Source: Sedimentisphaera cyanobacteriorum (lineage in GTDB: Bacteria; Planctomycetota; Phycisphaerae; Sedimentisphaerales; Sedimentisphaeraceae). Taken from it: a stretch of DNA of 32,000 nucleotides. A program made the translations under genes and the position numbers. Below the pieces are notes generated by a model. It was not told the DNA's origin, did no database searches, and saw only the letters and a list, made by a program, of their open reading frames with translations. This document shows, in pieces, positions 1,445-31,956 of this stretch (the first letter of the stretch is position 1; each line of letters begins with the position of its first letter). The DNA is taken from positions 2,340,001 through 2,372,000 of the forward strand of contig NZ_CP019633.1 of assembly GCF_001997385.1 (NCBI RefSeq). The letters run 5' to 3'.

Positions 1445-1473
1445 TTGTTCCCCGTAATTTTAATAAATAATTC

Positions 1474-11629: not shown

Positions 11630-11683
11630 CCTATCTCTCCATCTCATCCTGTAGATCCTGTTAATCCTGTCCAATATTATATC

Positions 11684-15185: not shown

Positions 15186-15258
15186 GGCCCCATCGTCTAG
15201 TGGACTAGGACATCAGGTTTTCATCCTGAAAACAGGAGTTCGATTCTCCTTGGGGCTA
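15186..15258 (+). tRNA. tRNA-Glu (anticodon UUC)
   Basis: I folded the cloverleaf by hand. The acceptor stem is GGCCCCA/TGGGGCT, the D stem GTCT/GGAC, the anticodon stem TCAGG/CCTGA with loop TTTTCAT (anticodon TTC), and the T arm AGGAG-TTCGATT-CTCCT, with discriminator A. It is 73 nt long and CCA is not encoded. Confidence 0.93.
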
Positions 15259-15301: not shown

Positions 15302-15563
15302 ATTGCAAACTCCTTCAATCACAAGGGTTTACATCACTTCCCCCTTCGCCTTCCTGCTCTTCCCTGCAAGGCCTTGCGGCGGATTTGTGCAGACTTTCTT
15401 CAGCTGGTCTGAACACTGCAGGAAAAGTTCACTATTGCCATCCTTTGGGATTCGCTGGATATATCGCCGATTCTGAAATTCAATGACCGGTGTATTGAGG
15501 TTTGTATTTTAGGGTAAATTTTCTTGACAAATAAACATTTTTTTTATATATTTTATAATCAAA

Positions 15564-16854
15564 ATTTTAATCTGAAGCGCAACTTTTTTCATCGCTCCAG
15601 AGCACTTCATTTGGTGTCCGATATTTTAAACATTTCCTTGGTCGATTATTGATTAAGGCGACAACTTTGTCAAGTTCCTTATCACTAACTTTCTTAAAAT
15701 CAGTTCCCTTAGGGAAGAACTGACGAAGTAGGCCGTTTGTGTTTTCATTAGTTCCACGCTGATAAGAACTGTATGGATCAGCAAAGTAGCAGCATAGGCC
15801 GACTGTTTTTTCCATCTCTTTAAACTGGGCAAACTCCTTGCCATTGTCAACTGTCATCGTTTGACGCTTGGACTTTGGTATCTTCCTGAACAACCTTCGG
15901 GTGGTTTCATTCATGCTCTGGGCACTCTTATCTTTCATCCTGCCAGAGAGCAGATAGCGGCTTGCACGCTCGACATGTGTCGCAATAAATGAACCGTGTC
16001 CTTTACCGCTGACGCTGTCACCCTCCCAATCGCCGAAGCGATTACGCTTGTCAACAACCTCCGGACGCTCACTGATCGAACGTTTGTTCGGTATCCGGCC
16101 ACGCTTGTCATTACTGCCGTGCTTCTTTCGTCGTTTGCGACGGCCTTGACGCAAAAACTTGTAAAAAACACCGCCGTCAACCTTGTCTCGTTTAACCCAA
16201 CTATATATGGTCAAAGGGCTTACACGCATTTGGGCATTATCTGGATAGTCGATTTCAAGACGGCCTGCTATCTGTTCAGGCGAGTGATATTGCTCGAGTT
16301 TACTGCATACTCGACGACGAAGACGGCCATTCTGTTCAAGCCGATATGGCTGCTTGGATGCGGCCCTGCGTTTGCTGTAATATCGCTGGGCCAGGTGGGG
16401 CTTATAATCATGGGTTGAGGACATGTTTCGATTCAACTCACGGCTGATAGTGCCCTTGCTCCTGCCGAGATATATGGCGATTTCCAGTAAATTTTTTCCT
16501 TCAGATCGCATTTTTAGAATGCTTTCTCGCTCATTAATGTTAAGATGTCTATAGCCCATTGCGGTTCCTTAAATAGAGTACTTTTTCGTCAAAAAAACAT
16601 TCTATCGAAAACAACCGTAATGGGTGCTCTTTTTTACTTTTTAAAAGCAATCGCCATCGCTATAATAGATTATCTTGTTGCAGGGGATAGGGCAATGCTG
16701 GAGAGCAACCCGAGCACCGCAACAATCTATACTGGATAGAGGCGGCTTAACCGCCGCCCTTATTCTTTATCTATTCAGGCAGCTAAAAGCGATAAACTCC
16801 AGCCCGCCACGCGGGCTGATTAAATTAGCGAAGCGTTGCGCTTCAAATTAAAAT
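15564..16854 (-). mobile_element. IS30-family insertion sequence (~1.29 kb)
   Basis: The terminal inverted repeats are ATTTTAATCTGAAGCGCAAC (15564-15583) and the reverse complement of 16835-16854 (ATTTTAATTTGAAGCGCAAC), matching at 19/20. The transposase stop codon lies inside the left IR. I see no obvious target-site duplication (flanks ..TCAAA and CTAAG..). Confidence 0.85.
15567..16559 (-). CDS. IS30 family transposase
   Basis: 330-aa ORF with an N-terminal HTH (LEIAIYLGRSKGTISRELNRN) and a DDE integrase-like catalytic core (..GDWEGDSV.., ..TVDNGKEF.., ..RGTNENTNGLLRQFFPKG..). Confidence 0.93.
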   Translation of the reverse strand: MGYRHLNINERESILKMRSEGKNLLEIAIYLGRSKGTISRELNRNMSSTHDYKPHLAQRYYSKRRAASKQPYRLEQNGRLRRRVCSKLEQYHSPEQIAGRLEIDYPDNAQMRVSPLTIYSWVKRDKVDGGVFYKFLRQGRRKRRKKHGSNDKRGRIPNKRSISERPEVVDKRNRFGDWEGDSVSGKGHGSFIATHVERASRYLLSGRMKDKSAQSMNETTRRLFRKIPKSKRQTMTVDNGKEFAQFKEMEKTVGLCCYFADPYSSYQRGTNENTNGLLRQFFPKGTDFKKVSDKELDKVVALINNRPRKCLKYRTPNEVLWSDEKSCASD

Positions 16855-17295
16855 CTAAGTAATAAACGAAATAACGGCGAAATAAGCGGCTCCTTATCCA
16901 TTGAAAACGACGGCACTGTTGAGGTAGGCTCGCATATCTACGCTCCGTACTATTCCGGCACTCTCACTGTTGAAGACGGAAGTGTTTCCAGCGATTATAT
17001 AAAGGTTGACTCTGGAGCGGATATGACAATAAATATTGGACAGGAAGGCTCTATTGAATTTAGGGATGCATCTGTCGCAAACAACATCTCAGATCTTATC
17101 AATAATGCCTTTTCCGGCGAGGGCAGCATTAATTTGAATATCTGGAATGATGGTTCGTATGTTGACTATGCCACATTAACCGACGGCAGCGATTATAAGG
17201 TAGAGAACGGAACGTTGTTTGTTCCAGAACCTGCCACGATGGCTATGCTTGGTTTAGGCGGCCTTGGGCTCTTGCGCAGCAGACGCAAATCATAA
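16855..17295 (+). pseudogene. 5'-truncated PEP-CTERM protein gene (C-terminal remnant)
   Basis: The reading frame is open from the first nucleotide after the IS30 right IR (my translation: LSNKRNNGEISGSLSIENDGTVEVGSHIYAPYYSGTLTVEDG..) through to the PEP-CTERM sorting signal VPEPATMAMLGLGGLGLLRSRRKS. There is no signal peptide, and no matching 5' part lies on the other side of the IS. The track's 17023 ATG is internal. Confidence 0.7.
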
Positions 17296-18398: not shown

Positions 18399-19430
18399 AT
18401 GGCTATATGGTTGGTAAGAGCAGGTAAAGGCGGCGCAAGGGAAAGTTGGGCTTTAGAGAAAGATGAAGTAATTATAGGTTGGGATGGAATGCCGGATCTT
18501 AGCCAATTCAAAGACAAAGACCAGATGCTTGATAAGCTCAAAGAGGTTTATCCTGATAAAAAAATTCAAGCCCTTTACAATCACCGAAGTCAGTTATGGG
18601 CTTTTGCTAAACGTATCGTAAAAGGTGATTTAGTCGTATTGCCTTTGAAAAGTCAGGATGCTATCGCCGTAGGTGAAGTAACCGGTGATTATAATTACCG
18701 GCCTGATAATCCAAGTTTCACCAAACATGCACGAGGGGTTAAATGGATAAAGCAGGACATACCGAGAAGTAGATTTGATCAGGATTTGCTATATTCCCTC
18801 GGAGCATTTATGACGGTATGTCAAATAAAACGCAATAATGCGGAAGAGCGTATAAAAGCTATAGTTAAAGGAGGTAAATTGCCGCCTGCCACAGGGTTCG
18901 AAGACGATGAAGATGTAAGCAATGAGGACGGCATAAAAAACGTAAATATCGAGGATTACGCTTCGACTCAGATACGTTCATATATTGCACAAAAATTTAC
19001 GGGACACCAATTAGCAGACTTGATTAACGCTATATTAGAGGCGCAGGGATATGTTACCGAAGTTTCTCCGCCGGGACCGGATGGAGGCGTTGACATAATT
19101 GCAGGACGCGGGCCGATGGGTTTTGATCCTCCATGGCTTGCTTGCCAAGTGAAAAGTGGCAACAATCAGCAGGATGTAAAAGTTATGAGAGAACTTAAGG
19201 GAGTAATGCAGGAATTCAAAGCAGAACAGGGATTATTTGTTTCCTGGGGTGGATTTACTCGTGAAGCAATAAAGGAAGCGAGAAAAAACTTTTTTGAGTT
19301 GAGGCTTTGGGATGCCGGAGAGGTTGTTGAAAACCTCTTGGGTTATTATGAAAAATTTGCGGACGAAATAAAGGCGGATTTACCTCTAAAAAGAGTTTGG
19401 TTGCTGGTTCAAGAAGATGATGAAATATGA
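18399..19430 (+). CDS. Mrr-like (PD-(D/E)xK, Mrr_cat) restriction endonuclease with an uncharacterised N-terminal domain
   Basis: 343-aa ORF. The C-terminal part has GPDGGVDIIAG ... LACQVKSG, a D...QxK motif as in the Mrr catalytic domain. The N-terminal ~160 aa (MAIWLVRAGKGG.., GDLVVLPLK.., AVGEVTGDYNY) are not the Mrr_N winged helix. The gene is visibly more AT-rich than its neighbours. Confidence 0.75.
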   Translation: MAIWLVRAGKGGARESWALEKDEVIIGWDGMPDLSQFKDKDQMLDKLKEVYPDKKIQALYNHRSQLWAFAKRIVKGDLVVLPLKSQDAIAVGEVTGDYNYRPDNPSFTKHARGVKWIKQDIPRSRFDQDLLYSLGAFMTVCQIKRNNAEERIKAIVKGGKLPPATGFEDDEDVSNEDGIKNVNIEDYASTQIRSYIAQKFTGHQLADLINAILEAQGYVTEVSPPGPDGGVDIIAGRGPMGFDPPWLACQVKSGNNQQDVKVMRELKGVMQEFKAEQGLFVSWGGFTREAIKEARKNFFELRLWDAGEVVENLLGYYEKFADEIKADLPLKRVWLLVQEDDEI

Positions 19431-19734
19431 CACCGTTAGGCGGTGAAAGATGTGCCGTACAAAACCAGCTGATTGACCAAACGCAGGCTGACCTTTGACG
19501 CCTCCTTGTTGAGCAAAGATGTAAATAAACTCCCTCGTATTATTTTCGATAATTGCTTCGTCTGAAGTTTCCGAACCCCTGCAAGATGTTCAAAACCAAG
19601 CTGAAAGATTATTTCTGTAAAATTAATTTTTGTATGAATAGACGTTATAGTTTTCGGCCTCATAGCGACATTTATATTCATGTATTTTCTTAATTCTATC
19701 CAATCTTCGCATATTTCGATTTCGCCGCCGATGA

Positions 19735-20505
19735 TTAGTATTGCCCGGACACTGAATCCCCGCAGGCTTCCTGCTTGCAGCTTCCGGATTTGCCTGCATC
19801 ACCCTTTAGCTTTTCGTATATGGAAGTTAGGCGGGGGCGGAGGATGCTGTTCCAAATTTCATACCCCTTTTTGTTCAGGTGCAGGCGGTCTTTGAGGAAA
19901 AGCTTATCATTCGGCCTTCCCTGCTCGGTTAAGAGAGCCGAGGCGGTGTCGGCGTAATACAGATTCTCGTGTTTCTGATTGAACCTTCGTATAATCTGAT
20001 TTGTTTCGCTCATTTGATCCCAATACTTCCAGCGGCTTGATGCCGGCTTAATCGGCAGATATACAAACGGGGTGCTTGGATATTCATCTCTGATTTTGCT
20101 CAAGAGCTGCTGGTAATCTTTGAAAATCTGCTCTGGAGGTTTGCCGGAGGCGGCATCGTTATCGCCTGCATAGAATACTATCACTGCCGGGCTGTACCCG
20201 CTGATAACATCATCGCAGTAGTGGATTATATCGGAGATATGCGAGCCCCCGAAACCTCGGTTGATTACATCAAGCCCGGGAAACGCCTCAGCCGTTTTCC
20301 ACATCCTTATGCTCGAGCTGCCGACGAAGAGAACAGCTTCATCGGGCGAGCTGTTTTTGCTGTCCCACTGCCTGAAAGACTCTATCGAGCCCTTAAACCT
20401 TGCAGGACCGGGGTCTTTAACGTCCTTCGCTGATAAAGGCGAGACAAGCGAAAAGCCAAGCAGGAGTGCTGCTGAGATACAGATAAATTTTTGCAGTTTA
20501 GCCAC
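19735..20505 (-). CDS. SGNH/GDSL-family hydrolase, secreted
   Basis: 256-aa ORF with a signal peptide and the SGNH blocks VLFVGSSSI, GFGGS, YAGDND and DRLHLNKKGY. Confidence 0.85.
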   Translation of the reverse strand: MAKLQKFICISAALLLGFSLVSPLSAKDVKDPGPARFKGSIESFRQWDSKNSSPDEAVLFVGSSSIRMWKTAEAFPGLDVINRGFGGSHISDIIHYCDDVISGYSPAVIVFYAGDNDAASGKPPEQIFKDYQQLLSKIRDEYPSTPFVYLPIKPASSRWKYWDQMSETNQIIRRFNQKHENLYYADTASALLTEQGRPNDKLFLKDRLHLNKKGYEIWNSILRPRLTSIYEKLKGDAGKSGSCKQEACGDSVSGQY

Positions 20506-20529
20506 TAAAATTCTTCCTTAAAAAAGTTT

Positions 20530-21477
20530 TTATTCGTCTTTTGGCACAATATCAAACACAGCGAGCTCCGGGCGTGCGAGAAAACGCGCCTTAATCACTC
20601 CGCCCCCATCGAGCCCCACGCCTCTGGAAACGTACATCTGCATGCCGGGTTTTTCGAACATTCCTTCCTCGTATTTCTTGCCGTATCTTGAGAACGTGAT
20701 TATCGCCCCGTAGAACGGCAGTGCGATCTGTCCGCCGTGGGTGTGGCCTGCCAGATACAGCTCGGCAGAGCCCTGCGGAACAGCCTCGAACAAATCAGGG
20801 CTGTGGTACAGAAAGAGCCGGAAGCTTTCTTCATCGAGCTTTGTGAGCCCTTCGATATTCGGATTCTGGAAATCTGCTCCGTAAATCTGGAGCGTTTCGC
20901 CGTTTTTTTCGATAGTTCTTGATTCGTTGAAAAGCGGGTCTATGCCGGCCTGCTCGAAGAGTTTTCTCGTATCGAAAGACCAGTTCCCCTCGCATCCGTA
21001 TATCCCGAGCGGAGGGTCTATATTGCTGAAAAGCTCCCTGAAACGCTGCTTAGCTACATACTCGCCAATATTGCAGGCGTCGCCTGTAAACACAACAGCA
21101 TCCGGCGAGAGCCTTCGCACCTCTCTAACGAGCCTCTGTTCGAGAACTGCCCGCTTGTCGCAGTGGGTATCGGTGATCTGTACGATACGGAAGGATGTAT
21201 TCTCAAGCTTGTCGGTTTCGATTCTGTGGCGTGAGATTTCAAGCCAGCGGGGCTCTATGAAACACGCATACACATACGTAATCACAATCGCAGCAGCTGC
21301 TGCATGCAGGAGAATTCGAAGCGTTTTGAAGCGAAAGAGCTTTGCGAGAAATGCAGGGCGTTTTGTGAATTTAAAGTAAATCTGGACAGCCTCAAGGCTT
21401 AAAACAAACGCTGCTGCTGTAAATACCGCAAGCGTAACCGCTCGAATCATAAAAAAGCAGAACTCAGTATAGCTCAT
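20530..21477 (-). CDS. membrane-anchored metallophosphoesterase
   Basis: 315-aa ORF with N-terminal TM helices followed by the calcineurin-like motifs QITDTHCD, TGDACN, GNW and GHTHGGQ. Confidence 0.88.
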   Translation of the reverse strand: MSYTEFCFFMIRAVTLAVFTAAAFVLSLEAVQIYFKFTKRPAFLAKLFRFKTLRILLHAAAAAIVITYVYACFIEPRWLEISRHRIETDKLENTSFRIVQITDTHCDKRAVLEQRLVREVRRLSPDAVVFTGDACNIGEYVAKQRFRELFSNIDPPLGIYGCEGNWSFDTRKLFEQAGIDPLFNESRTIEKNGETLQIYGADFQNPNIEGLTKLDEESFRLFLYHSPDLFEAVPQGSAELYLAGHTHGGQIALPFYGAIITFSRYGKKYEEGMFEKPGMQMYVSRGVGLDGGGVIKARFLARPELAVFDIVPKDE

Positions 21478-21493
21478 TTGAGAAACCTAAACA

Positions 21494-22495
21494 TCAAATC
21501 TTCTCGGATTTCAGCTCTCTGCTCATAAGACTCGCAATCACCTCATCGACGCTCATCTCGCCCTTTATAACGCTTTGAACGCCGGCAGCTATCGGCATCT
21601 CCACCCCGAGCCTGCCTGCAAGGGCAACCACAGAATCGCACGTTGAAACGCCTTCCACAACGCTGTTTGTTTCTGCAAGGGCATCGCTTACGGCCATACC
21701 TCGGCCGAGCTTTTCGCCGAAGCTGCGGTTGCGTCCTTTCGGCGAGATGCACGTTGTTACCAGATCGCCAAGGCCTGTCAGGCCTGCGAATGTGTCGGGG
21801 TCTGCTCCCATTGCCTTGCCGAGGCGGGATATCTCTGCGAGCCCGCGTGCAAGCAGGGCGGCCTTTGCGTTGTCGCCTGCTCCGATTCCGTCTATTATGC
21901 CTGCGGCTATTGCGATTACGTTTTTCGATGCCCCCGCAACCTGAACGCCGATTACATCCGGAGTTGAATACACTCGGAACCAAGGGGTGGTGAAGGTTTG
22001 CTGGACTCTGCGAGCGATGTTTTCATCCTCGCATGCTGCGCTTGCACTTGCTGGAAGCCTCTGCATAAGCTCGTCTGCTATATTTGGGCCGGAAAGCGTT
22101 GCGAGGGGGTTCTCGCCGCCGGTTTCCGTTTCGATTATCTGAGTGGGAAGGAGCAGACGATCGTTTTCTATGCCCTTGGTAACTGAGACTATCGCAGCAT
22201 CGGCGGGGAGGAAGGGCTTTAGACGCTTCCACACGCTCCCGCAAAACTGACACGGGACTGCCGAAATAATCAGCTCAGCACCGCGCATGCAGGAGGCATC
22301 ATCTGAATCAAATTTCAAAGCGGGGTCGAGCTGGAAGCCCGGGAGAAACAGGAAATTTTCGCCTGCTTTTTCTATCTCTGCAAGCTGAGATGCATTATGC
22401 CCCCACATAGTTACACTGAAGCCTTTGGAGCAAAGATTCGAAGAGCAGGCTGTGGCCATTGCTCCATCGCCGATTATAGTAATATTCTTGTACAA
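21494..22495 (-). CDS. gpsA: NAD(P)H-dependent glycerol-3-phosphate dehydrogenase
   Basis: GpsA-like throughout (ITIIGDGAMATA dinucleotide fold, NVIAIAAGIIDG..GDNAKAALLARGLAEI). I prefer the TTG start at 22495, which has GAGGA 8 nt upstream. The track's start at 22543 is also TTG and adds a hydrophobic extension that does not look GpsA-like. Confidence 0.9.
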   Translation of the reverse strand: MYKNITIIGDGAMATACSSNLCSKGFSVTMWGHNASQLAEIEKAGENFLFLPGFQLDPALKFDSDDASCMRGAELIISAVPCQFCGSVWKRLKPFLPADAAIVSVTKGIENDRLLLPTQIIETETGGENPLATLSGPNIADELMQRLPASASAACEDENIARRVQQTFTTPWFRVYSTPDVIGVQVAGASKNVIAIAAGIIDGIGAGDNAKAALLARGLAEISRLGKAMGADPDTFAGLTGLGDLVTTCISPKGRNRSFGEKLGRGMAVSDALAETNSVVEGVSTCDSVVALAGRLGVEMPIAAGVQSVIKGEMSVDEVIASLMSRELKSEKI

Positions 22496-22675
22496 TTTGC
22501 TTTTCCTCAATAGATTCAAAATGAAAAACAATATTATAAACAAATTTCAATGCTTGCAAAACCATTCAGGGCTATCTCCGAGAGTTTGAAAAGTTTTTTG
22601 ATCCGCAGAATGAGCAGCAGCGGTTCACCCCTTAGCATTTTAATAATCCCTTCAACGGGATAGACAGGTTGTTTT

Positions 22676-23143
22676 TTAGACGGGATTAACGGGATTTACA
22701 GGATTTTTCAGCGGGTAATTTGTTTGAACCACGTGGGATTGGTTTAAACCGCGAAGTGCTCGGAGGAACACGAAGATTTTTTAATTGGTTTAAACCACGA
22801 GCAGCACTGAGATATTTCAGCCACTGAGAAACGCTAAGAAGCACTAAGGGGATATTTCTAGACAGAATTTTTAAAGTTCAAGGCAATGATAAGGGGAAAG
22901 TTTTTCTTCTGTAGCTGCCGCTGACTCTCCGCCTGCGACCGACAGGCTCAATGTTTAACATCTCCCGTACTACAGCGGAGTCCGCCGTGGCGGACCCGCT
23001 AGGCATTCTTTTAGAAAAGATTTTTCGCTTACCGCCGGCTCTTCACGTTTCGCTATCCTAGCGGGGAGCTTGCGCTCCTCCGCTGTATGACGCTGCATTA
23101 TTAAGCAGCGAACCGCAGGCTCAGTCCGTAAATGCTGCGGCCA
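22676..23143 (+). repeat. mosaic repeat H-T2 (long repeat), copy C, the most complete copy
   Basis: The order of motifs is TAGACGGGATTAACGGGATTTACAGGAT, CAGCGGGTAATTTG, two GGTTTAAACC palindromes, CTGAGATATTTCAGCCACTGAG, CAAGGCAATGATAAGGGGAAAG, then the hairpins at 22974-23000, 23060-23084 and 23091-23110. It matches 4543-5010 (inverted) and 11853-12203. Confidence 0.9.
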
Positions 23144-23173
23144 GTCTATAGTAGATACTGGCTGTCCGCTTAT

Positions 23174-23342
23174 TTCTCCGATACCTCTCCGCCTGCGGCG
23201 GACAGGCTCAATGTTTAATATTCCTTTTACATCGGTGGTTAAATTATTCTTAATTGAGGCTGTTTTGCTCATCAACGGCCAGAGAGCTGCCCCGCAATTT
23301 GATATTCTGCACTAATGCGGGAGCTGAAGTTTTTACACAGAG
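23174..23342 (+). repeat. mosaic repeat module P, copy C
   Basis: Differs from 11684-11852 at 6 of 169 positions by eye. A partial third copy lies at 31957-32000. Confidence 0.9.
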
Positions 23343-23667
23343 GTATCGAAGGAAACGGAGAGGATATTTTTTAGACAGGATTAACAGGATTGACAGGATA
23401 GATATTTGATAAGGGAAAGGCGGAGAAAGATTTTTGGGCGGGTAATTTTTTTAATCCTCGTGGGATTGGTTTAAACCGCGAAGGGCTCGAAGGGCACGAA
23501 GATTTCTGTTAGTTATTTAATAGAAGGGCTTTACATTCATAAAATTATCTGTGTCATCTGTGTCATCTGTGGATTAAAAAATTAATTCAGACCATATCCC
23601 CTTCGTGTGTTTCGCGGGCCTCGTGGTAAAAAAACATAATATCTGTGGATAATAAATTTCGCTGCGG
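23332..23667 (+). repeat. mosaic repeat H-T1, copy C, the most complete copy
   Basis: The order of motifs is TTTACACAGAG, CGAAGGAAACGGAGAGG, three NACAGGAT units (23371-23399), GGGCGGGTAATTT, GGGATTGGTTTAAACCGCGAAGGGCTCGAAGGGCACGAAG, three ATCTGTG units (23547-23574), ATCCCCTTCGTGTGTTTCG, then ATCTGTGGATAATAAATTTCGCTGCGG. It ends 130 nt before the valS ATG. Confidence 0.88.
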
Positions 23668-23797
23668 ATTAAATATTTTTAATCGGTTTATTCGAGCCAT
23701 ACATGGAGGACGCAGCAGTCGGTTATTGCTTTACACAAACGGGTAATTTGATACCATTACGCTTAAAATTATCAGCTTGAATTGGTACAGGTTAATT

Positions 23798-26668
23798 ATG
23801 GCAAAAGAACTATCGAAAGTTTATAACCCCCGAGAAGTAGAGCAGCTTGCAGAAAAGCTTTGGCTTGATGCCGGCAGCTACCATACAGAACCGCCTTCAA
23901 AGGGCGGAAAAGACAGCAAACCATACACAATCGTAATCCCGCCGCCTAACGTAACGGGAATGCTGCACATGGGGCATGCCCTTAACAACACGCTGCAGGA
24001 TGTGATTATCCGATTCAAACGTATGCAGGGCTTCAACACCCTCTGGATGCCCGGTACAGACCATGCCGGCATCGCCACGCAGAGCGTAGTAGAGAAAAAG
24101 CTGCACTCTGAGCATGGCAAAACCCGCCACGATGTGGGGCGTGAAGGCCTTGTGGAGATGATATGGGAGTGGAAACAGCAGTATGGCGACAGAATCCTCG
24201 AGCAGCTCAAGGGCATCGGGGCCAGCTGCGACTGGCAGAGAACACGCTTCACCCTCGATGATATGTGCGCAAGGGCAGTTCGCAGAACATTCTACAAGCT
24301 CTTCAGCGACAAGCTTATTTACAAAGGCAAGCGTCTTGTAAACTGGGACCCGCACCTTCAAACAGCAGTGGCTGATGATGAGGTTGTGCATAAAACAGTG
24401 CAGGGAAATTTCTACTATATGAAATATCCGCTCTCGGACGGCAGCCGAGAAGTAATGATCGCTACTACTCGTCCTGAAACAATGCTAGGCGATACGGCTG
24501 TTGCTGTAAACCCCAAGGATGAACGCGCCGAGGAGCTGATTGGGAAGATGATAGACCTCCCGCTCACAGGGAGAAAAATCCCGATAATAGCAGATGATTA
24601 CGTAAAGCGCGGCGAGGGAACCGGCTTTCTGAAGGTTACCCCTGCCCACGACCCGAACGATTATGAAATCGGCCTGCGCCACGATCTCGAGAGAATCAAC
24701 ATCCTCACACCCGAGGGATACATCAACGAAAACGGAGGCGACTTCGAAGGGCTCGATAGATTCGAGGCACGAAAAAGGATAGTTGAAAGGCTTCAGGACG
24801 AGGGATTATTAGAGAAAATTGAGCCGAGGGAGCAGGAAGTTGGCCACAGCGACCGCAGCGGCGTTATAATAGAGCCGTATCTCTCCGATCAGTGGTTCGT
24901 AAGCGTTGCCCCGCTTGCAGCCCCTGCGATTGAAGTACTCAGAGAAAGGCGTTTGAAGTTCCATCCGAAGCGCTATGAAAGCGCATACGCCGACTGGCTT
25001 GAGGGCATTAGAGACTGGTGCATTAGCAGGCAGCTTTGGTGGGGGCACAGAATCCCGATTTGGAGCGTGGAGCTGGAGGTTGAAAACCCGATTGAGAACC
25101 CGGATGCAGACCCGATATCCGATGAAATCAAATCTGCCCTGAGCAGCAAAACCGGTGTAAGCTGGCTGGAATTCACAGAAGACCTCGGCGAGTTTGCCGT
25201 GCAGATATTCCCCGATGAAGAAGACCCTGCAAAGGTGCGCATTGATATATGCATAGCAGAGAAAGACCGCACAGCAGAAGACCTGCTCGAGAAGCACGGT
25301 TTCCGGAGAGACCCGGACGTATTGGATACGTGGTTCAGCTCTGCGCTTTGGCCTTTCAGCACTCTCGGCTGGCCTGAACAGACCGAAGAGCTCAAATTCT
25401 ACTACCCCACTGATCTTCTGATTACCTCACGCGATATCATTACGCTCTGGGTTTCGAGAATGGTAATGATGGGGCTCTACAATATGGGCGAGGTTCCGTT
25501 CAGCGATGTTTTCATACACGGGAAAATCCTCGACGGCAACGGCGAAACGATGAGCAAAAGCAAGGGCAACGGCATAGACCCGCTTGCAATTATAGAGCAT
25601 TACGGCGCAGATGCGATGCGTTTCAGCCTCGCTAATATGACCACAGAGAATCAGGATATGCGTATGCCCGTCAAGCAGGACGAGCAGGGCAGGAATATCA
25701 GCAGCAAGTTTGATATAGGCAGGAATTTCTGCAACAAGCTCTGGAATGCCTCCCGTTTTGCAATGATGAACCTCGAGAATATCAGCGCAGATGAGTTTGA
25801 TGCCGATAAGATGGATATGACAGACCGCTGGATACTCTCCCGCCTTGAAGATACAGTTTGCTATGTAACCGATATGCTGGGTGAGTATAAGTTCAGCGAG
25901 CCGGCAGGCGCGATTTATCGCTTCTTCTGGAACGACCTCTGCGACTGGTATCTGGAATGGGGCAAGCCGCGGATGAAGGATGACAGCGAAAGGCCGATAT
26001 TCCAGAACGTGCTTGCGTTTTTACTCGATAATACGCTCCGCCTTATGCACCCGTTTATGCCTTTCATAACCGAGGGCATATTCCAGACCCTCGCTGAATA
26101 CGCCCCTTCAAGGCCGCTGAAAGGGCTCGTGAAAAGGAGCGGGGAAGAGCTGCTTATAGAAGCCGCTTGGCCGGGCAGCGAGCTGGAGCAGTTCCGCAAT
26201 CCCGATATAGAGCAGCAGATAAATGAAGTGCAAACGATTGTTAAGAGCATTCGTGAGGTGAGAAGCCAGTACAATATCGCCCCGAAGCAGAAAATCAAGG
26301 CAGGCATCTCCGCACCCGAGAGCTATCAGCCGCTATACGAAAAATGCAAAGAGCTTATCGTAAATCTCGCAGGGCTCGAGAGCCTTGAGATAGCCGAAAA
26401 CATAGAGCGGCAGGGAACTACCGCCACAAACGTTATCGGCGAGATTGAAGTTTTCGTGCACGGCGTGATAGACCCTGATGCTGAGAAAAAACGCCTTGAA
26501 AAGCAGAAGCAGGATCTTGTTAAAGCTGCAAAGGGCGTGGAAGGAAGGCTTTCAAACGAGAGCTACGTTAAGAATGCCCCGCCTGCAATCGTTCAGGACT
26601 CCAGAAATAAGCTCGCAGAGCTGAAAGAACAGATTGAGGCTGTTGATAAGCTTCTCGAAGAGCTCTGA
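23798..26668 (+). CDS. valS: valine--tRNA ligase
   Basis: Class I aaRS motifs are present: PPNVTGMLHMGHALN (HIGH) and TMSKSKGN (KMSKS). It also has an editing domain and a C-terminal coiled coil. I place the start at ATG 23798 (MAKELSKVYNP), because the track's 23777 start is a TTG. Confidence 0.95.
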   Translation: MAKELSKVYNPREVEQLAEKLWLDAGSYHTEPPSKGGKDSKPYTIVIPPPNVTGMLHMGHALNNTLQDVIIRFKRMQGFNTLWMPGTDHAGIATQSVVEKKLHSEHGKTRHDVGREGLVEMIWEWKQQYGDRILEQLKGIGASCDWQRTRFTLDDMCARAVRRTFYKLFSDKLIYKGKRLVNWDPHLQTAVADDEVVHKTVQGNFYYMKYPLSDGSREVMIATTRPETMLGDTAVAVNPKDERAEELIGKMIDLPLTGRKIPIIADDYVKRGEGTGFLKVTPAHDPNDYEIGLRHDLERINILTPEGYINENGGDFEGLDRFEARKRIVERLQDEGLLEKIEPREQEVGHSDRSGVIIEPYLSDQWFVSVAPLAAPAIEVLRERRLKFHPKRYESAYADWLEGIRDWCISRQLWWGHRIPIWSVELEVENPIENPDADPISDEIKSALSSKTGVSWLEFTEDLGEFAVQIFPDEEDPAKVRIDICIAEKDRTAEDLLEKHGFRRDPDVLDTWFSSALWPFSTLGWPEQTEELKFYYPTDLLITSRDIITLWVSRMVMMGLYNMGEVPFSDVFIHGKILDGNGETMSKSKGNGIDPLAIIEHYGADAMRFSLANMTTENQDMRMPVKQDEQGRNISSKFDIGRNFCNKLWNASRFAMMNLENISADEFDADKMDMTDRWILSRLEDTVCYVTDMLGEYKFSEPAGAIYRFFWNDLCDWYLEWGKPRMKDDSERPIFQNVLAFLLDNTLRLMHPFMPFITEGIFQTLAEYAPSRPLKGLVKRSGEELLIEAAWPGSELEQFRNPDIEQQINEVQTIVKSIREVRSQYNIAPKQKIKAGISAPESYQPLYEKCKELIVNLAGLESLEIAENIERQGTTATNVIGEIEVFVHGVIDPDAEKKRLEKQKQDLVKAAKGVEGRLSNESYVKNAPPAIVQDSRNKLAELKEQIEAVDKLLEEL

Positions 26669-26721: not shown

Positions 26722-26808
26722 CGGATTTGCAAAACGCTTAAATCTCACCTCGAACTCATTTTATGCAGCAGCTCAGAGCAGAAATCGAAGGTATCTCGAC
26801 TAATTAAC

Positions 26809-28344
26809 TAGTCGCCCCTGAAAAAGTTTAAAATTTTCCTTAAATTCTTTCCTGATAATGGTTTATATGATTGAAAAGCTTTCGAGATATGGTATAATAT
26901 TGCAAGTGTTTATCTTACATCTATCAAAACATTGCAATATTGGGACAAAATAATGAAGGCAAAAAACAATAAAGCAGGCTTACTCTTTCAGCAGCCATTA
27001 AAACCTCTTGTAAATCCTGATCACTCTTTAGTCCAACTCTCAGAGGTTGTCAACTGGTCTCGCTTTGAAGAGAAGTTTGGCAGTTTATACAGTCCTGATT
27101 CAGGCAGGCCGGCCAAGCCGATTCGCCTGATGGTCGGCCTTCAGTATCTCAAGTACACTTTCAATCTCAGCGATGAAGCAATCGTTGCCGGCTGGGTTGA
27201 GAATCCTTACTGGCAGTATTTCTGCGGCGAAAGATACTTCCAGCACGAGCCTCCTATTGATCCAACCAGTATGACTAAGTGGCGTAATAAGGTAAAATCT
27301 GATGGTCTTGAAGAGCTGCTCGAAGAAACTATCAAAGCCGGCTTGAAGCTTAAGGTTATCAAAAAGAACGATTTCAACAAGCTCGTTGCAGATACAACCG
27401 TTCAGCAGAAGAACATCACTTATCCGACCGACGCAAAACTCTGCCACAAACTGCGCATTAAGCTTGTAGATCTTGCAAAAGCATCAAAACTCCAACTTCG
27501 CCAAAGCTACGAAAGGGTTGGAAAAAGGGCGTATGTAATGCAGGGCAGGTATCGACGTGCAAGACAGTTCAAAAGAGCTAAAAAAGAAGTGAAGAAATTA
27601 AGGAACTACCTGCGGCGAATTACGAAAGAGGTCGAGCGGAATATAGCAGGCAATGAGCAGTTAAGAATAATTTTTGATACATTGCTTCAAGCCGCTAAGA
27701 AGCTTTTAGCCCAGACAAAGAAAAGCAAAAATAAGCTCTACAGTATTCACGAACCTCACGTCTGCTGCATTGGGAAAGGCAAAAGCCACAAGAAATATGA
27801 GTTTGGAAATAAGGTTGGAATTGTAACTACTGCCAAGAATAATTTTATCGTAGGAGCGTTGGGCTTTGAAGGAAACCCTTATGATGGCCATACTCTTCGG
27901 GCTAATCTGAAGCAGACAATGAATTTAATCGGGAGAGAAAAGCTTGGAGATGTTTATGTTGATGGAGGATACAAGAAACATGGCTGCGAAGATATTGGAA
28001 ATGTTGAAATTGTAGAAAAGGGCTGGCGAAAAAAGAAACGAAGTATCAAGAGGTGGATTAAGAGAAGATCGAGCATAGAACCAACGATAGGCCACCTCAA
28101 AGAAGACAACAGGTTGGGAAGAAACTTCTTGAAAGGTGTAGAAGGGGACAAAATGAACGCCCTCGGCAGCGCTTTTGGGTACAATATGCGTAAACTTCTA
28201 GAGAAGTTTACTTTTGCCTATATTTTTATGCTTAAAATTATTGAATTTTACAGAAATTTGGCAATGAAAAGCAAATTAAAGACTCGATTAGCCTGATATA
28301 TTTTTTTAGTTTCCCCAAAATCATTGATTTTTCAGGAACGACTA
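26809..28344 (+). mobile_element. IS5-family insertion sequence (~1.54 kb)
   Basis: The terminal inverted repeats are TAGTCGCCCCTGAAAAA (26809-26825) and the reverse complement of 28328-28344 (TAGTCGTTCCTGAAAAA), matching at 15/17. It has a single transposase ORF and is more AT-rich than the surroundings. Confidence 0.8.
26953..28296 (+). CDS. IS5 family transposase
   Basis: The N-terminal DUF772-type region (LVNPDHSLVQLSEVVNWSRFEEKFGSLY..GRPAKPIRLMVGLQYLKYTFNLSDEAIVAGWVENPYWQYFCG) and the DDE domain are typical of long IS5-family transposases. I place the start at ATG 26953, because the track's 26932 start is a TTG. Confidence 0.9.
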   Translation: MKAKNNKAGLLFQQPLKPLVNPDHSLVQLSEVVNWSRFEEKFGSLYSPDSGRPAKPIRLMVGLQYLKYTFNLSDEAIVAGWVENPYWQYFCGERYFQHEPPIDPTSMTKWRNKVKSDGLEELLEETIKAGLKLKVIKKNDFNKLVADTTVQQKNITYPTDAKLCHKLRIKLVDLAKASKLQLRQSYERVGKRAYVMQGRYRRARQFKRAKKEVKKLRNYLRRITKEVERNIAGNEQLRIIFDTLLQAAKKLLAQTKKSKNKLYSIHEPHVCCIGKGKSHKKYEFGNKVGIVTTAKNNFIVGALGFEGNPYDGHTLRANLKQTMNLIGREKLGDVYVDGGYKKHGCEDIGNVEIVEKGWRKKKRSIKRWIKRRSSIEPTIGHLKEDNRLGRNFLKGVEGDKMNALGSAFGYNMRKLLEKFTFAYIFMLKIIEFYRNLAMKSKLKTRLA

Positions 28345-28600
28345 TTTATTAACCGCTAATTTTAACTAATTTCCGCTAAGATGGTTTCTTCGTGGTGAAT
28401 AATTCATTTTAAAACCCCGGAGGGCGCTAAGGGCACGAAGGGTTTTTGTAAATTATTTTATAACAAGGGCTTAGATTTTTAAAAATCTGCGTCATCCGTG
28501 CCATCTGTGGATAATAAATTTCGCTGCGGGCTCGAAAGATCAACTATCCGCTTGTTGTCCGCCTTCGGCGGACTGGCTCAGTTGATAGATAATAAATTCA
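28345..28600 (+). repeat. mosaic repeat region D (degenerate H words, partial T1, REP-like nested hairpin)
   Basis: The order of motifs is CCGCTAAG, CGGAGGGCGCTAAGGGCACGAAGGG, ATCTGCGTCATCCGTGCCATCTGTGGATAATAAATTTCGCTGCGGG (cf. 23641-23667), then the GTCCGCC-TTC-GGCGGAC hairpin (28557-28573) nested inside ATCAACT/AGTTGAT (28539-28545 / 28580-28586). Confidence 0.75.
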
Positions 28601-28726
28601 GCAAAGCATTGCAGAGTGATGATTTGCATTTTGCCCAAAAAACTTGTCGCACACGGTTCTAATCTGCATAAAAGGCGCAGCTCCGAGCCTGCGGAGAATT
28701 ATAAAAAGCGACTCCCATTTCTAATC

Positions 28727-30349
28727 CTACGGATTTTTGCGGGGCTTGCCCGAGGAATCCATTCTGCCGGCCATCTGAGAATCCCAAGAGTTATACAGCT
28801 CTCTGAGCTCCTTTGCTATTACAGGATATTTATCAATTAAATTTTTTGTTTCGCCTATGTCTTCTTCGAGATTGAAAAGCTGCGGGCTGTTTGGGTATTT
28901 GTAGGGCTTCTCCGCCTCAACAGCATCCCCGTTTTCTTTTATGCGAAAGTCCTTATGCTCCCAGCCAACGTTGTTAGTGAGCTTCCATTTGCCCTTCCTG
29001 ATAACCCACGAATTGCGGCTCTGCGCCCAGGCGAGCCATTCGTGCTGCTTTTTGCGTTTGCCATTGAGCACAGGCAGAAGGTTTTTGCCATCGAGATTAT
29101 CAGGCGTTTTTAGTCCGGCGAGACTGGTTATTGTTGGGAAGATGTCCATCGTGGAAACAATCGCCTCTTCGTTCACTTTGCCCTCAGGGAGCCTTCCGGG
29201 CATACTAACTATCATCGGGACCCTAAGCCCGCCTTCAGCAAACATATACTTAAACCCGCTGAGCGGGGCGTTGTTTGCGTATGTATTGATTGTCCCTCCG
29301 TTGTCTGAAACGAAAACCACAAGCGTATTCTCCCGCTGGCCTGTCTTCTCAAGCGTATCGAGTATTCTGGAAACGCTCTCATCCAGAGCGAGAAGATTAG
29401 CAAGGTAGCATCTTCTGCCTTCCGGGTCCACCTTGCCCATATGCCCCCATCTTTTATGGAACTTCTGATGACGCTCTTCGTTCGGCTCCCAGTATGGGTA
29501 ATCCCAGTTTTCTGCATTTCTGTCCCAGGGGAGGTATCTCGCTCCAACTCTCTTCGCCCATTTCTCATCGACAACATAAGTGGGCTGGTGAACAGCATTG
29601 TGAGCTACGTGCAGATAGAAGGGTTTATCACCTTTCCTGCGCTCAATAAATTCGCATGCTCGGTCGGTGAAGATTTCGGTGGTAAAGCCGTCTTCGTAAG
29701 AAACCTTCTCGGCCTCTTCCTGCTTTTTCCCCTTCCCCTCTGCCCAGAGCAGCGGGCCTACAACCTGACAGCCAAAATTGCCTTTGAACCCCTCTCTTGC
29801 CTTGTATGCCTCCACATCCTTCTGACTGAGCCGGATATAGTCCCATGTGTGGAACATAAAGCCGAGAAACTCATCGAAACCGTGGAGCGTGGGGAATTCC
29901 TTATCGCCGCCGTTGTGGTGCGTTTTGCCGTATTTGGCGGTAACGTAGTCTGATTTGCTGAGGTGTTCGGGGATGGTGAGCTCCCTTGAGGGAAGGCCGC
30001 CGTCGCCGTACCAGTAGTTCCCCCAGCGCTGCTGATAGCGGCCTGTGATAAGCCCTGTACGGCTAGGGCTGCATATTGGAGATGTACCGTAAGCGTTTTT
30101 GAAATATGTGCCGGTTTTGGCGAGTCTGTCGAAGCCCGGGGTGCCGTATTTCTTTACGTCATCCGGAGCATCCGGCAGGAAAGACATATCAGCATAGCCC
30201 AAATCGTCTGCAATTATAACCACAACATTCGGCTTTTTCTGCTCTGATGGGGCGATCAAAGAGCCTGTGCAGGAGCTCAAAGCTCCCATTCCGCTGATGG
30301 TAATGCCTGCTGCGCCGGCGTATTTAAGAAAATCTCGTCTGCTTTTCAT
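28727..30349 (-). CDS. arylsulfatase (formylglycine-dependent sulfatase family), Tat signal plus lipobox
   Basis: 540-aa ORF with a twin-arginine signal (SRRDFLKYAGAAG), a possible lipobox (ALSSC) and the sulfatase signature CSPSRTGLITGR (C-x-P-x-R). Confidence 0.92.
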   Translation of the reverse strand: MKSRRDFLKYAGAAGITISGMGALSSCTGSLIAPSEQKKPNVVVIIADDLGYADMSFLPDAPDDVKKYGTPGFDRLAKTGTYFKNAYGTSPICSPSRTGLITGRYQQRWGNYWYGDGGLPSRELTIPEHLSKSDYVTAKYGKTHHNGGDKEFPTLHGFDEFLGFMFHTWDYIRLSQKDVEAYKAREGFKGNFGCQVVGPLLWAEGKGKKQEEAEKVSYEDGFTTEIFTDRACEFIERRKGDKPFYLHVAHNAVHQPTYVVDEKWAKRVGARYLPWDRNAENWDYPYWEPNEERHQKFHKRWGHMGKVDPEGRRCYLANLLALDESVSRILDTLEKTGQRENTLVVFVSDNGGTINTYANNAPLSGFKYMFAEGGLRVPMIVSMPGRLPEGKVNEEAIVSTMDIFPTITSLAGLKTPDNLDGKNLLPVLNGKRKKQHEWLAWAQSRNSWVIRKGKWKLTNNVGWEHKDFRIKENGDAVEAEKPYKYPNSPQLFNLEEDIGETKNLIDKYPVIAKELRELYNSWDSQMAGRMDSSGKPRKNP

Positions 30350-30510: not shown

Positions 30511-30780
30511 TTTAGAACCACGAAATTTAAACCAATCCCCCCAACCAAAAAATTGTGTTTTGTTTTATCACTAAGGGGCCGAAACACACGAAGGGGATAT
30601 GGTTTTGATTGTTTTTTTATCCACAGATGACACAGATGGCACAGATTTTATTTGAATGTAAGCGATTGATGTAAAACAATTTATAACATAAATTTTCGAG
30701 CCCTTTGAGCACTTCGTGATTTTAACAAATTACCCGCCCAAAAAATCCTGCCAATCCTATCGAAGGTATTATTGAAATGC
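30511..30780 (-). repeat. mosaic repeat H-T1, copy E (inverted, degenerate head)
   Basis: The reverse complement reads ATAGGATTGGCAGGAT, TTTTGGGCGGGTAATTTG, CACGAAGTGCTC.., AATCTGTGCCATCTGTGTCATCTGTGGAT, ATCCCCTTCGTGTGTTTCGG, GGGGATTGGTTTAAATTTCGTGG. Its gene-proximal end lies ~160 nt upstream of the sulfatase ATG. Confidence 0.8.
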
Positions 30781-30833: not shown

Positions 30834-31493
30834 TTATGCCCTGCGTTTGCGGAGGATAAATCCGCCGAGGCCCAGAAGCGCCATCGTCGCAGGCTCGGGG
30901 GTGATCGTTACTGAAGTAATATCAAATGCCGTATCACCGCCGCTGGATATCATATTTAAGACAGGCTGTTCTGAAACACTGTATTCTCCGAGATAATCGG
31001 AAAAGTATTCCTGAGGAGTAACATAAGATGTATCGGAATAGTCAAATGTCAGACCAGCAAGTAAAAACGGATAAGCGTTAAGCTTAGAAATAGTGCTTCC
31101 ATTCAAGGTTTCAGAATTTATATCGGAATAGTCTGAGCTGAGTGTGATATAAATACCGTCAGATTCAATATTTATTTTTTCCCATGGATCTCCATTTTCT
31201 GAATCAGGTCTAACGTATTCACCTGACACCCCTGAACCGTACAACTCTGTAAACACAGGCTTTTGTTCTAACGTTTCAGAATACCAGCTATTTCGGTCTG
31301 AAATAAAACTGTCAATATTATGTTCCGTCCGAGAACCGTTGACAACGAAAGAAAAATCATACTCTTGGCCTTCCTGATATCCTAAAACGGTGTCTTGAGC
31401 TTCCCCGGTTATGGTAATAACCGGATCATACGCAGCAAACCCTGCGGAAGCGAAGACCAAACACACAGCCAGACACGATAATAATTTCTTCAT
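30834..31493 (-). CDS. PEP-CTERM sorting domain-containing protein
   Basis: It has a signal peptide (MKKLLSCLAVCLVFASAGFA) and a C-terminal PEP-CTERM signal (TPEPATMALLGLGGFILRKRRA). I place the start at ATG 31493, because the track's 31502 start is a GTG. Confidence 0.88.
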   Translation of the reverse strand: MKKLLSCLAVCLVFASAGFAAYDPVITITGEAQDTVLGYQEGQEYDFSFVVNGSRTEHNIDSFISDRNSWYSETLEQKPVFTELYGSGVSGEYVRPDSENGDPWEKINIESDGIYITLSSDYSDINSETLNGSTISKLNAYPFLLAGLTFDYSDTSYVTPQEYFSDYLGEYSVSEQPVLNMISSGGDTAFDITSVTITPEPATMALLGLGGFILRKRRA

Positions 31494-31660
31494 GATAAAC
31501 ACCTTTCACAATTCTCTAAAAAAACAATTAAACATACTTCTTTTGAGTTAACAAAACTGAATTGAAAAATCAAATTAATTTTAAGTATTTTTCCTGATTT
31601 TCTAAATTTTTCATGCGGCTTAAAGTGATTGGAGGTAAATCTTTGCCGCACTTTTTACCT

Positions 31661-31956
31661 AAAATAGGGGACAGTTACCTAATAATTGTTTTCAACTGAT
31701 GTGAGTTTGCAGCTTCTTTGATTATTTTTTAGAAAACCAATTTCTGATTGTTCACAGGCTTTTAATCGGCATTTTTTTCTGTTTAATTGCTTCATCAAGG
31801 CTTTAAACCGAGCAAATATGCTTGTTGAGCGGCAGCTGCTCTTGACGAACCGCTTGCCGCCTCATCTGAGCCAAATTCTTATCCCGGCCAATTCCCTATC
31901 TCATTATTTTATAAAGCTTTTTACTATTAAAAATAGGTAACTGTTCCCCTATTTTT
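31661..31956 (-). mobile_element. MITE-like non-autonomous element, copy 2 (296 bp, inverted relative to copy 1)
   Basis: It has the same TIRs (AAAATAGGGGACAGTTACCT at 31661-31680 and AGGTAACTGTTCCCCTATTTTT at 31935-31956). By eye it shows about 14 substitutions plus a ~25-nt indel relative to 4272-4542. Confidence 0.8.

Follow-up and report, generated by a model that had tools for sequence, protein, structure and literature searches.

Recurring non-coding modules in the gpsA-valS spacer of Sedimentisphaera cyanobacteriorum: a candidate mosaic family of foldback repeats

What fills the 1.25-kb gap between the divergent genes gpsA and valS of the planctomycete Sedimentisphaera cyanobacteriorum, and does the filling serve either gene? 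We addressed this question in a 32,000-nt stretch of the 2.95-Mb genome (contig NZ_CP019633.1, positions 2,340,001 to 2,372,000; hereafter the window, numbered from its first nucleotide), within which the proteins AQQ10053-AQQ10071 are encoded. The gpsA start (22495, minus strand) is fixed by 100% identity to the annotated 333-aa protein, and the valS start (23798, plus strand) by a 100% identical 956-aa valine-tRNA ligase of S. cyanobacteriorum. About 1.15 kb of the gap (22569-23718) is lineage-specific and consists mostly of repeat modules. [quoted passage not shown] The repeats are most likely selfish, recombining DNA and not a control region of gpsA or valS, and they are expected to have no direct role in the expression of either gene.

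Recurring blocks in the window

Statements on copy number refer to the 32-kb window and to approximately 125 kb of the sister species Sedimentisphaera salicampi, in which the valS, rnr, gpsA, hom, sulfatase and ELM1/permease loci (L005 and L008-L012) were compared. The hom/ELM1-like, rnr/comF and gpsA/valS spacers are called regions A, B and C, respectively. An earlier note on this DNA had described region C as a co-oriented mosaic of three units, H-T2, P and H-T1. This description was borne out by self-comparison, and every block recurrence listed in the note was reproduced by self-BLAST and a repeat finder. H-T2 matched an inverted copy over 414 nt (22703-23116 and 4545-4958; 95.7% identity in self-BLAST) and had further matches at 11876-12144 (82%, gapped) and 12140-12203 (92%). 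The reported run of 113 identical nucleotides between 22704-22816 and inverted 4845-4957 was recovered, and it extends to 114 nt if begun at 22703. P matched 11684-11880 over 197 nt (23174-23370; 94.4%) and 31959-32000 (88%); the six mismatches counted over 169 positions of the P copies were verified. T1 matched 11461-11608 (72%), 4166-4247 (78%), 28409-28520 (79%) and 30558-30730 (77%). The E-values of the block matches ranged from 1e-15 to 0, far beyond chance.

In total, the repeats cover 3.3 kb, or 10% of the window, in seven segments that are all intergenic (4166-5068, 11435-12203, 22663-23143, 23174-23667, 28409-28529, 30547-30758 and 31660-32000). Modules of region C recur in five other spacers, which makes six spacers with members in all, and the three kilobase-sized divergent spacers (regions A, B and C) share the same parts, as had been proposed. 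Module order varies among them: H-T2/P/H-T1 in region C, T1/P/H-T2 in region B, and T2a'/H-T2/other element/T1 in region A. The H-T2 unit of region B is a chimera, with an H core nearest to the H-T1 head of region C (93.5%) and a T2a segment nearest to the T2 of region C (94%).

The repeats hold no annotated gene, and the earlier statement that the spacer contains no credible open reading frame (ORF) held: its longest ORF comprises 101 aa and crosses module borders. Among 1.84 billion proteins, this ORF matched a single arginine-rich repeat protein, and a collection of 15 billion proteins lacked all ten of the repeat ORFs looked up in it. A search of the whole window against Rfam at the gathering threshold returned only tRNA-Glu, and a search of the spacer at E<=10 returned only five chance-level matches. 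The whole spacer had no BLAST match in plasmids and phages, and viral scans for the H core and for the P hairpin gave none either. The sequence GATTGGTTTAAACCGNGAAG, present in five copies in the window, had two chance matches (L001 and L002) without wider similarity in 185,579 species genomes, a collection from which the source genome is absent. A metagenome scan for the 20-mer CGAAACACACGAAGGGGATA, which is exact in four T1 copies, also gave two chance matches, both in coding sequence. A 26-nt match in a distant Phycisphaerae metagenome-assembled genome (L006) was rejected, being merely a short GC hairpin. Literature searches on Sedimentisphaera, on MITEs of Planctomycetes and on the array sequence (both strands) yielded nothing on these repeats. 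The modules thus match no described family in Rfam, in plasmid and phage BLAST or in literature searches with sequence strings, in agreement with the earlier note.

Anatomy of the gpsA-valS spacer

The modules are 60-250 nt in size. Their border motif is an array composed of a T-run and two to three tandem 9-mers ACAGGATNN, found at 22672-22704, 23367-23399 and 11433-11450 and, inverted, at 11646-11672 and 4988-5010. An array is followed by an H core, in which three purine-rich 9-mers end in CGAAG and which runs on into either T1 or T2a. The blocks named in the earlier note stood up, but their limits call for revision: P is bounded by inverted ACAGGAT arrays, and T2 is a composite of H core, T2a, a P-head-like hairpin, S core and tail hairpins.

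Between the gpsA start and the repeats lie a native upstream region (22496-22568, minus strand), which ends where the alignment with S. salicampi gpsA ends (22568), and a lineage-specific spacer (22569-22662) that is single-copy in the window and has no similarity to the S. salicampi gpsA locus. The native part contains a promoter-like site, TTTGCA-16-TATAAT (22560-22533, minus strand; 10 of 12 matches). H-T2 begins on the plus strand with array 1 (22672-22704), which reads TTTTTTAG followed by ACGGGATTA ACGGGATTT ACAGGAT; Tandem Repeats Finder (TRF) assigned it a period of 9 with 2.9 copies, and it is 86% identical to the array at 23358-23399. Copy 1 of the H core (22705-22775, plus strand; repeat families D4 and D5) is composed of GGGTAATTT, a hairpin GTTTGAACCA / TGGTTTAAAC and purine-rich CGAAG / CGGAG / CGAAG repeats, and the 24-mer CGTGGGATTGGTTTAAACCGCGAA occurs four times in the window. 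T2a follows (22776-22876, plus strand) with a second GGTTTAAACC, 10-nt CACTGAG / CGCTAAG / CACTAAG repeats (TRF period 10 at 22822-22848), GGGGATAT and a truncated array TAGACAGAATT. It forms part of the 414-nt, 96% match to 4545-4958 and shares 94% identity with 11941-12091. The P-head-like hairpin within T2 (22918-22961, plus strand; family D6) is a degenerate TCCGCC-N3-GGCGGA followed by CAGGCTCAATGTTTAA, with 91% identity to 11688-11731 and 92% to 23185-23221.

The S core (22968-23086, minus strand) comprises 119 nt that are predicted to form a three-way junction. The junction is closed on the outside by the stem ACAGCGGAG/CTCCGCTGT and includes two hairpins, GTCCGCC..GGCGGAC and GGAGC..GCTCC, as well as a conserved centre GCTTACCGCCGGCTNTTCACGTTTCGC. 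In the region B copy, the inner S appears to have been cleanly lost between CCGCT direct repeats. The T2 tail (23087-23143, plus strand; family D10; 92% to 12140-12203) contains hairpins GCTGC-ATTATTAA-GCAGC and CCGCAG..CTGCGG.

Compared with the intact inverted array of region B (11646-11672), the linker at 23144-23173 (plus strand) may be read as the left border of P, in the form of an inverted ACAGGAT array that has decayed. The P module itself (23174-23370, plus strand) is a foldback of ~190 nt with the terminal inverted repeat CGATACCTCT / AGAGGTATCG and an internal GC hairpin TCCGCC-TGC-GGCGGA. In region B, an intact inverted array precedes P, whereas in region C the left array is decayed and the right array is intact. 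The latter is array 2, the head of H-T1 (23367-23399, plus strand), which reads TTTTTTAG followed by ACAGGATTA ACAGGATTG ACAGGAT (TRF period 9, 2.8 copies, 93% matches). Copy 2 of the H core (23430-23501, plus strand; TRF period 9) includes CGAAGGGCT CGAAGGGCA CGAAG and is 93.5% identical to 11876-11937 and 87% identical to 22702-22779. The T1 tail (23502-23667, plus strand), with copies at 11502-11629, 4166-4271, 28443-28529 and 30547-30700, comprises three ATCTGTGTC units (23547-23571), an inverted CGAAG arm ATATCCCCTTCGTGTGTTTCGCGG (23594-23617) and a perfect TTATCCACA box (23644-23652, minus strand). Beyond it are a lineage-specific spacer (23668-23718), outside both the repeat cover and the part conserved in S. 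salicampi, and the native valS upstream region (23719-23797, plus strand; 98.7% to S. salicampi L005 9922-10000), which contains a promoter-like site TTTACA-16-TACCAT with TG (23730-23757).

All four perfect DnaA-box 9-mers TTATCCACA of the window fall inside T1 copies (11560-11568, 23644-23652, 28506-28514 and 30617-30625), against 0.17 expected, and each is the last unit of a ATCTGTGNC x3 array. The box was not found in the S. salicampi repeats, and its presence in T1 is probably incidental. The cumulative GC skew turns near 17 kb of the window. A replication origin or a site for DnaA titration was rejected, as the window contains neither dnaA nor dnaN and the box is missing from the S. salicampi repeats.

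Comparison with Sedimentisphaera salicampi

The stretch immediately upstream of each gene is conserved with S. salicampi over 73 nt for gpsA, 79 nt for valS, 101 nt for hom, 64 nt for the ELM1-like gene, 97 nt for rnr and 92 nt for the sulfatase gene, and the best promoter-like sites of gpsA and valS fall within these conserved stretches. In S. salicampi, gpsA lies 152 nt after a GH2 gene and valS lies after a tRNA gene in a 490-nt spacer; the spacers upstream of the ELM1-like, sulfatase and hom genes measure 178, 193 and 337 nt. The modules are absent from the S. salicampi spacers upstream of gpsA, valS, the ELM1-like gene, the sulfatase gene and hom. Therefore, 22569-23718 is best described as a lineage-specific filling between native back-to-back promoter regions. 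The earlier suggestion of shared regulatory cassettes fared poorly on this point, since the flanking genes keep their own conserved 64-101 nt upstream and the orthologous S. salicampi spacers are free of modules.

Diverged relatives of P, S, T2a and a further repeat, Q, were found at other loci in S. salicampi with ~70-84% identity. Therefore, the modules are not merely a local duplication within the window, an alternative that the earlier note had raised. One P homologue lies upstream of rnr (L008 1591-1768), and a second lies downstream of the sulfatase gene (L011 11945-12146); they are 70% identical to the window copies and 84% identical to each other. An S core homologue (74%) lies just downstream of S. 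salicampi valS (L005 12939-13059), T2a-like arrays occur at L008 1790-1830, L010 21060-21110 and L011 12430-12520, and an inverted homologue of the T2 tail occurs at L011 12199-12271. ACAGGAT arrays are also present in S. salicampi, and their adjacency to a P head is kept at L011 21125-21188 and 21462-21526. Modules with array or short terminal-inverted-repeat borders, internal GC hairpins and short tandem sub-repeats occupy many spacers in two Sedimentisphaera species, at non-orthologous positions.

Repeat Q itself (28554-28654), downstream of the sulfatase gene, consists of a GTCCGCC-TTCG-GGCGGAC hairpin and ~80 nt. At least three copies lie within 21 kb of S. salicampi (L011 19458-19557, 8392-8494 and 11627-11716; 80-86%), one of them orthologous. 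Another tandem repeat of ~20-45 nt (AGACCGGTTCAAAAAT / AGACTGGTCTAAAAA...) stands beside the P-like element upstream of S. salicampi rnr (L008 1157-1350).

Copies within the genome are 94-96% identical, compared with ~70% between species, while the flanking genes are 84-89% identical. This contrast points to recent copying or gene conversion rather than to old constrained sequence. The claim of the earlier note that the blocks are conserved beyond what spacer DNA keeps is therefore better explained by recent exchange. Each repeat cluster of the window sits at a synteny breakpoint relative to S. salicampi, in whose genome the hom, ELM1-permease, rnr, gpsA, valS and sulfatase blocks are scattered. 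The 414-nt, 96% inverted pair (4545-4958 / 22703-23116) could invert the 17.7 kb in between.

Turnover was visible between two S. salicampi strains, a complete genome (L011) and a draft contig (L143), compared around the sulfatase gene. The flanks are 99.1-99.7% identical, and the differences fall in the downstream repeat spacer. Three array units broken up by a GC hairpin in one strain stand against one unit in the other, a difference of 45 nt (array plus hairpin). Within P, identity drops to ~60% over a patch of ~75-120 nt that has nearly identical sequence on both sides, and past the end of P all similarity is lost after ~40 nt. The draft contig terminates within the same repeat-rich spacer, as expected of multi-copy repeats. 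No whole element was cleanly present in one strain and absent from the other at this spacer. Two larger segments occur in the complete genome only, a 2.3-kb ADP-ribosylglycohydrolase gene (L011 2022-4386) and a 1.1-kb segment with a 248-aa gene (L011 8826-9910).

Folding of the modules

Several modules are predicted to fold. The T1 of region B (11425-11680) forms a complete foldback whose ACAGGAT arrays pair into a 16-bp stem (z = -4.3 when folded as single-stranded DNA), whereas the T1 beside valS has lost its right-hand array (z = -0.8). P, with a terminal repeat of 10-17 nt, folds on both strands (z = -3.0 on the plus and -3.6 on the minus strand), and the S core folds better on the minus strand (z = -3.8) than on the plus strand (z = -1.5). 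The G-U pairs of the S core favour the strand that is minus in the gpsA-valS spacer. Compared with the S. salicampi copy, 28 of 31 core pairs of S are kept, with two compensatory and three one-sided changes. Several G-U changes leave the pairing of S intact. In a consensus of four P sequences from the two species, pairing is retained in 92% of pair cells, and one helix of 5 bp carries two compensatory changes along with two wobble changes. The observed values for P were reached by only 2-8 of 500 shuffles, although such outcomes occur in 5-25% of unconstrained alignments. These tests covered two lineages, and the structure was derived from the same sequences on which it was tested. Because of this sampling and circularity, and because P occurs in either orientation and lacks one hairpin in S. 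salicampi, the pairing signal of P and S is suggestive, not conclusive.

The hairpin TCCGCC-N3-GGCGGA occurs five times in the window against 0.07 expected; its 6-bp stem makes up a minor share of each module. GGA motifs number 24 on the plus and 13 on the minus strand per 1005 nt of spacer, with ~14 expected, and only the arrays are GGA-dense. Protein-sponge RNAs of the CsrB/RsmZ type carry approximately one GGA per 15-20 nt on one strand, for the most part in the loops of hairpins. A CsrA sponge of this type extending over the whole spacer was rejected, since this enrichment is too weak.

A border array shared with tailed phages

The 18-mer AGACAGGATTAACAGGAT was found at 14 IMG/VR loci, compared with ~2 estimated by chance. 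One of the 14 is a collagen-like coding repeat, and the others are non-coding with a third unit and mostly a T-run. The array-bearing contigs (L013-L026, L044, L054, L074 and L090; 48-65% G+C) encode portal, capsid, baseplate and head-tail connector proteins, indicating true tailed phages. Array 2 of the window (23367-23399) is identical at 33 of 33 nt to contigs L014 and L019, and the similarity between window and phages is confined to the 27-33-nt array. Foldbacks of 60-110 nt with an array as each arm occur in L017, L090, L020, L016 and L013. L025 and L015 have solo arrays, which occupy successive 50-110-nt gaps between co-directional genes, beginning 5-15 nt past a stop codon and ending 10-80 nt before the next start codon, whereas the arrays of the window are 400-1100 nt from the next start codon. 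Conceivably, a host factor reads the array as a signal, or else the array terminates a small element that phage and host have in common.

With a relaxed ACAGGATNN x3 pattern, 181 of 197 matches were Gly-X-Y coding arrays in giant viruses and phages (L027-L142). These are long in-frame Thr-Gly-X collagen-like arrays with the same 9-nt period as the non-coding arrays, and the overlap is a coincidence of this period. We also rejected a decayed collagen-like (Gly-X-Y) coding sequence as the source of the 9-nt period, since the non-coding arrays lack an open frame and have a fixed T-run.

Neighbouring genes and insertion sequences

Among the genes of the window, aspartate kinase, phosphoglycerate mutase and hom occupy 209-3986 on the minus strand, followed by the ELM1-like gene (5188-6150, plus), an amino-acid permease (6422-8731, plus), RNase R (rnr; 8962-11208, minus), comF (12414-13163, plus) and tRNA-Glu (15186-15258). 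GDSL lipase, metallophosphatase and gpsA lie at 19735-22495 (minus), valS at 23798-26668 (plus), the sulfatase gene at 28727-30349 (minus) and a PEP-CTERM protein gene at 30834-31493 (minus). A gene for a Mrr-type restriction endonuclease is located at 18399-19430. Beside a DDE transposase, the S. salicampi genome contains the GDSL-lipase gene a second time as a partial copy (window 19704-20190 against L009 16662-17159).

Two insertion sequences are present in the window. An IS30-family element (~15544-16874), ~290 nt downstream of tRNA-Glu, has HTH_38 and rve domains (330 aa) and 40-nt imperfect inverted repeats. An IS5-family element (~26805-28348), between valS and a T1 copy, has a 454-aa transposase and 21-nt imperfect inverted repeats. 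Both were rejected as parents of the modules, to which their inverted repeats are unrelated. A separate element of ~271-296 nt with 21-bp terminal inverted repeats AAAATAGGGGACAGTTACCTA is present in two inverted copies (4272-4543 and 31660-31955; 93-100% identical), each interrupting T2/T1 or P repeats; the 3-bp sequences CGC and ACC may be flanking duplications of this element.

Discussion

The modules of the gpsA-valS spacer have several of the features by which MITEs are recognised: they are shorter than ~500 bp, non-coding, flanked by terminal inverted repeats and dispersed at non-orthologous sites. We propose that units enter, or get copied into, spacers and each other, and that their segments may then be swapped by homologous recombination, gene conversion and slippage. 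Such swapping would keep the copies within a genome alike and give rise to the H-T1, H-T2 and P chimeras. Selection would keep approximately the last 65-100 nt before each gene free of units, so that units would build up in the dead space between back-to-back promoters. The dispersed homology of the units may mark or even cause rearrangement breakpoints.

Several observations weigh against a selfish mosaic family. The flanks of the modules showed no consistent target-site duplication, most borders abutting other repeats. Neither a clean pair of filled and empty sites nor, in the window, a transposase with matching ends was detected. Furthermore, the persistence of the array at up to 33 of 33 nt in unrelated phages, where it precedes start codons, hints at a function beyond selfish spread, and the pairing of P and S, kept across species with a few compensatory changes, also fits a functional RNA or a structure of single-stranded DNA.

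Four rival explanations can be named. P, the S core and perhaps the H-T units might be multi-copy structured-RNA genes or cis-elements kept for their RNA fold. The strand bias of the S core in both folding energy and G-U pairs, its two compensatory pairs with few broken ones at 74% identity, and the retained pairs and shuffle results of P all speak for this, but we regard it as improbable. Only two lineages were available, so that each covariation is a single event; the fold was tested on the sequences from which it was derived; and foldback DNA elements give the same kind of structure signal. In addition, P points towards valS, comF and rnr but is antisense to both of its neighbours in L011, its hairpin CCCCGCAA..TGCGGG is missing in S. 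salicampi, and two strains with 99% identity differ by a replaced patch in it. None of the modules lies between a promoter and a terminator, and Rfam contains no match. The T-run with three ACAGGATNN units might be a genuine cis-acting signal that the mosaics spread or exploit. It could be an operator, in which contiguous 9-bp repeats are bound by a repeat-binding protein, or an RNA site, in which UUAA-CAGGA-UUAA hairpins present CAGGA loops to a CsrA-type protein upstream of ribosome-binding sites. The excess of the 18-mer in IMG/VR, the solo arrays before start codons in L025 and L015 and the complete identity of 23367-23399 with L014 favour a signal, and CsrA orthologues have been reported in some Planctomycetes (PMC4682653). 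However, arrays that form the arms of short foldbacks in other phages resemble a small mobile element that phage and host have in common. The window arrays lie far from the next start codon, GGA is only mildly enriched across the spacer, and the number of units differs between strains. Moreover, the loci examined contain no csrA, and no binding protein is known. We therefore consider a signal function doubtful. A broader version is judged just as doubtful: that the array is a signal for a host factor in Sedimentisphaera-like bacteria, borrowed by phages, with the mosaics spreading or soaking up the signal, and that P and the S core are, separately, new classes of structured RNA.

Two further explanations are still less probable. 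Under a strict comparison with repetitive extragenic palindromic (REP) sequences, the TCCGCC-N3-GGCGGA hairpins would be REP units moved by a REP-associated tyrosine transposase (RAYT), and the rest of each module would be linker motifs. The hairpin is strongly over-represented in the window, similar hairpins occur in the S. salicampi repeats, and tagged REPs have been reported in Planctomycetes (PMC3733652). However, REPs are recognised by a GTAG or CGTC tag beside the stem (PMC3733652), and all intact copies here are instead flanked as CTC-TCCGCC...GGCGGA-CAGGCTC. The basic REP unit is an imperfect GC-rich palindrome of 20-40 nt, whereas the stems here are only 6 bp long, and the hairpins form a small part of each module without being arranged in inverted pairs. 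We consider membership in this class quite unlikely. The BIME-like logic seen by the earlier note is apt as an analogy, while actual REP/BIME membership fails on the tag and is disfavoured by palindrome size and arrangement. We consider it least plausible of all that the repeats are cassettes with a common promoter or nucleoid-organising role, by which divergent housekeeping genes would be driven or insulated. Three divergent spacers are indeed built from the same parts, the T1 end faces the nearest gene (hom, valS and sulfatase) in three of five cases at a distance of 130-200 nt, and the TTATCCACA boxes are concentrated in T1. Nevertheless, the native proximal regions with their promoter-like sites are conserved independently of the repeats, the cassettes are absent from the S. 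salicampi orthologues, and their content varies between strains. One T1 copy (28409-28529) lies between convergent gene ends, and the S. salicampi repeats lack TTATCCACA.

If the proposed selfish mosaic family is real, it would be the first abundant family of mosaic repeats to be described from Phycisphaerae. It would help to explain the kilobase-sized gaps upstream of some housekeeping genes, the strong differences in gene order between two species whose proteins encoded by valS, rnr and gpsA share 90% identity or more, and the places where Sedimentisphaera draft assemblies break. It would also warn annotators against reading such spacers as regulatory. If the array is instead a signal and not a transposon end, it would offer a handle on gene control or phage-host links, about which next to nothing is known in this phylum.

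Among known systems, the BIMEs and REP units of E. coli and its relatives resemble the repeats described here in being intergenic and non-coding, with a small set of modules in varying combinations, GC-rich hairpins and many copies per genome located between genes and at operon ends. The modules described here differ in being longer, at 60-250 nt against 20-40 nt, and in being bordered by tandem 9-mer arrays, without the GTAG/CGTC tag, alternating Y/Z palindromes or sequence similarity. BOX elements of Streptococcus pneumoniae have a modular structure, boxA-boxB(n)-boxC, in a fixed order and have no known transposase. Like the repeats here, they are modular, foldable and intergenic, with an inner unit of variable number. 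In contrast, order and partners vary here (H continues into T1 or T2, P precedes H, and S may be missing), and the two families share no sequence similarity.

MITEs shared between viruses and prokaryotic hosts are the subject of a preprint (bioRxiv 10.1101/2024.01.18.576219). The parallel is that the ACAGGAT array occurs both in the chromosome and in tailed phages, as foldback arms in several of them, whereas here the 27-33-nt array, not a whole element, is common to phage and host. Bacterial MITEs and foldbacks (Correia/NEMIS, ERIC, RUP and Nezha) and nested MITE clusters have been reviewed (PMC3184786, PMC10969869). Like these, the modules are small and non-coding, have terminal inverted repeats and fold back, are dispersed in intergenic regions, are inserted into each other, are restricted to a lineage and break draft assemblies. 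Unlike these, they showed neither target-site duplication nor parent insertion sequence, their terminal repeats are 9-mer arrays instead of unique sequence, and their heads and tails are exchanged. A minisatellite MITE of Porphyromonas gingivalis (PMC4596501) likewise has a body of short tandem repeats in variable number. It belongs to a different phylum and differs in sequence, while the units here are 8-10 nt long and occur in sets of two to four, both at the borders and inside the modules.

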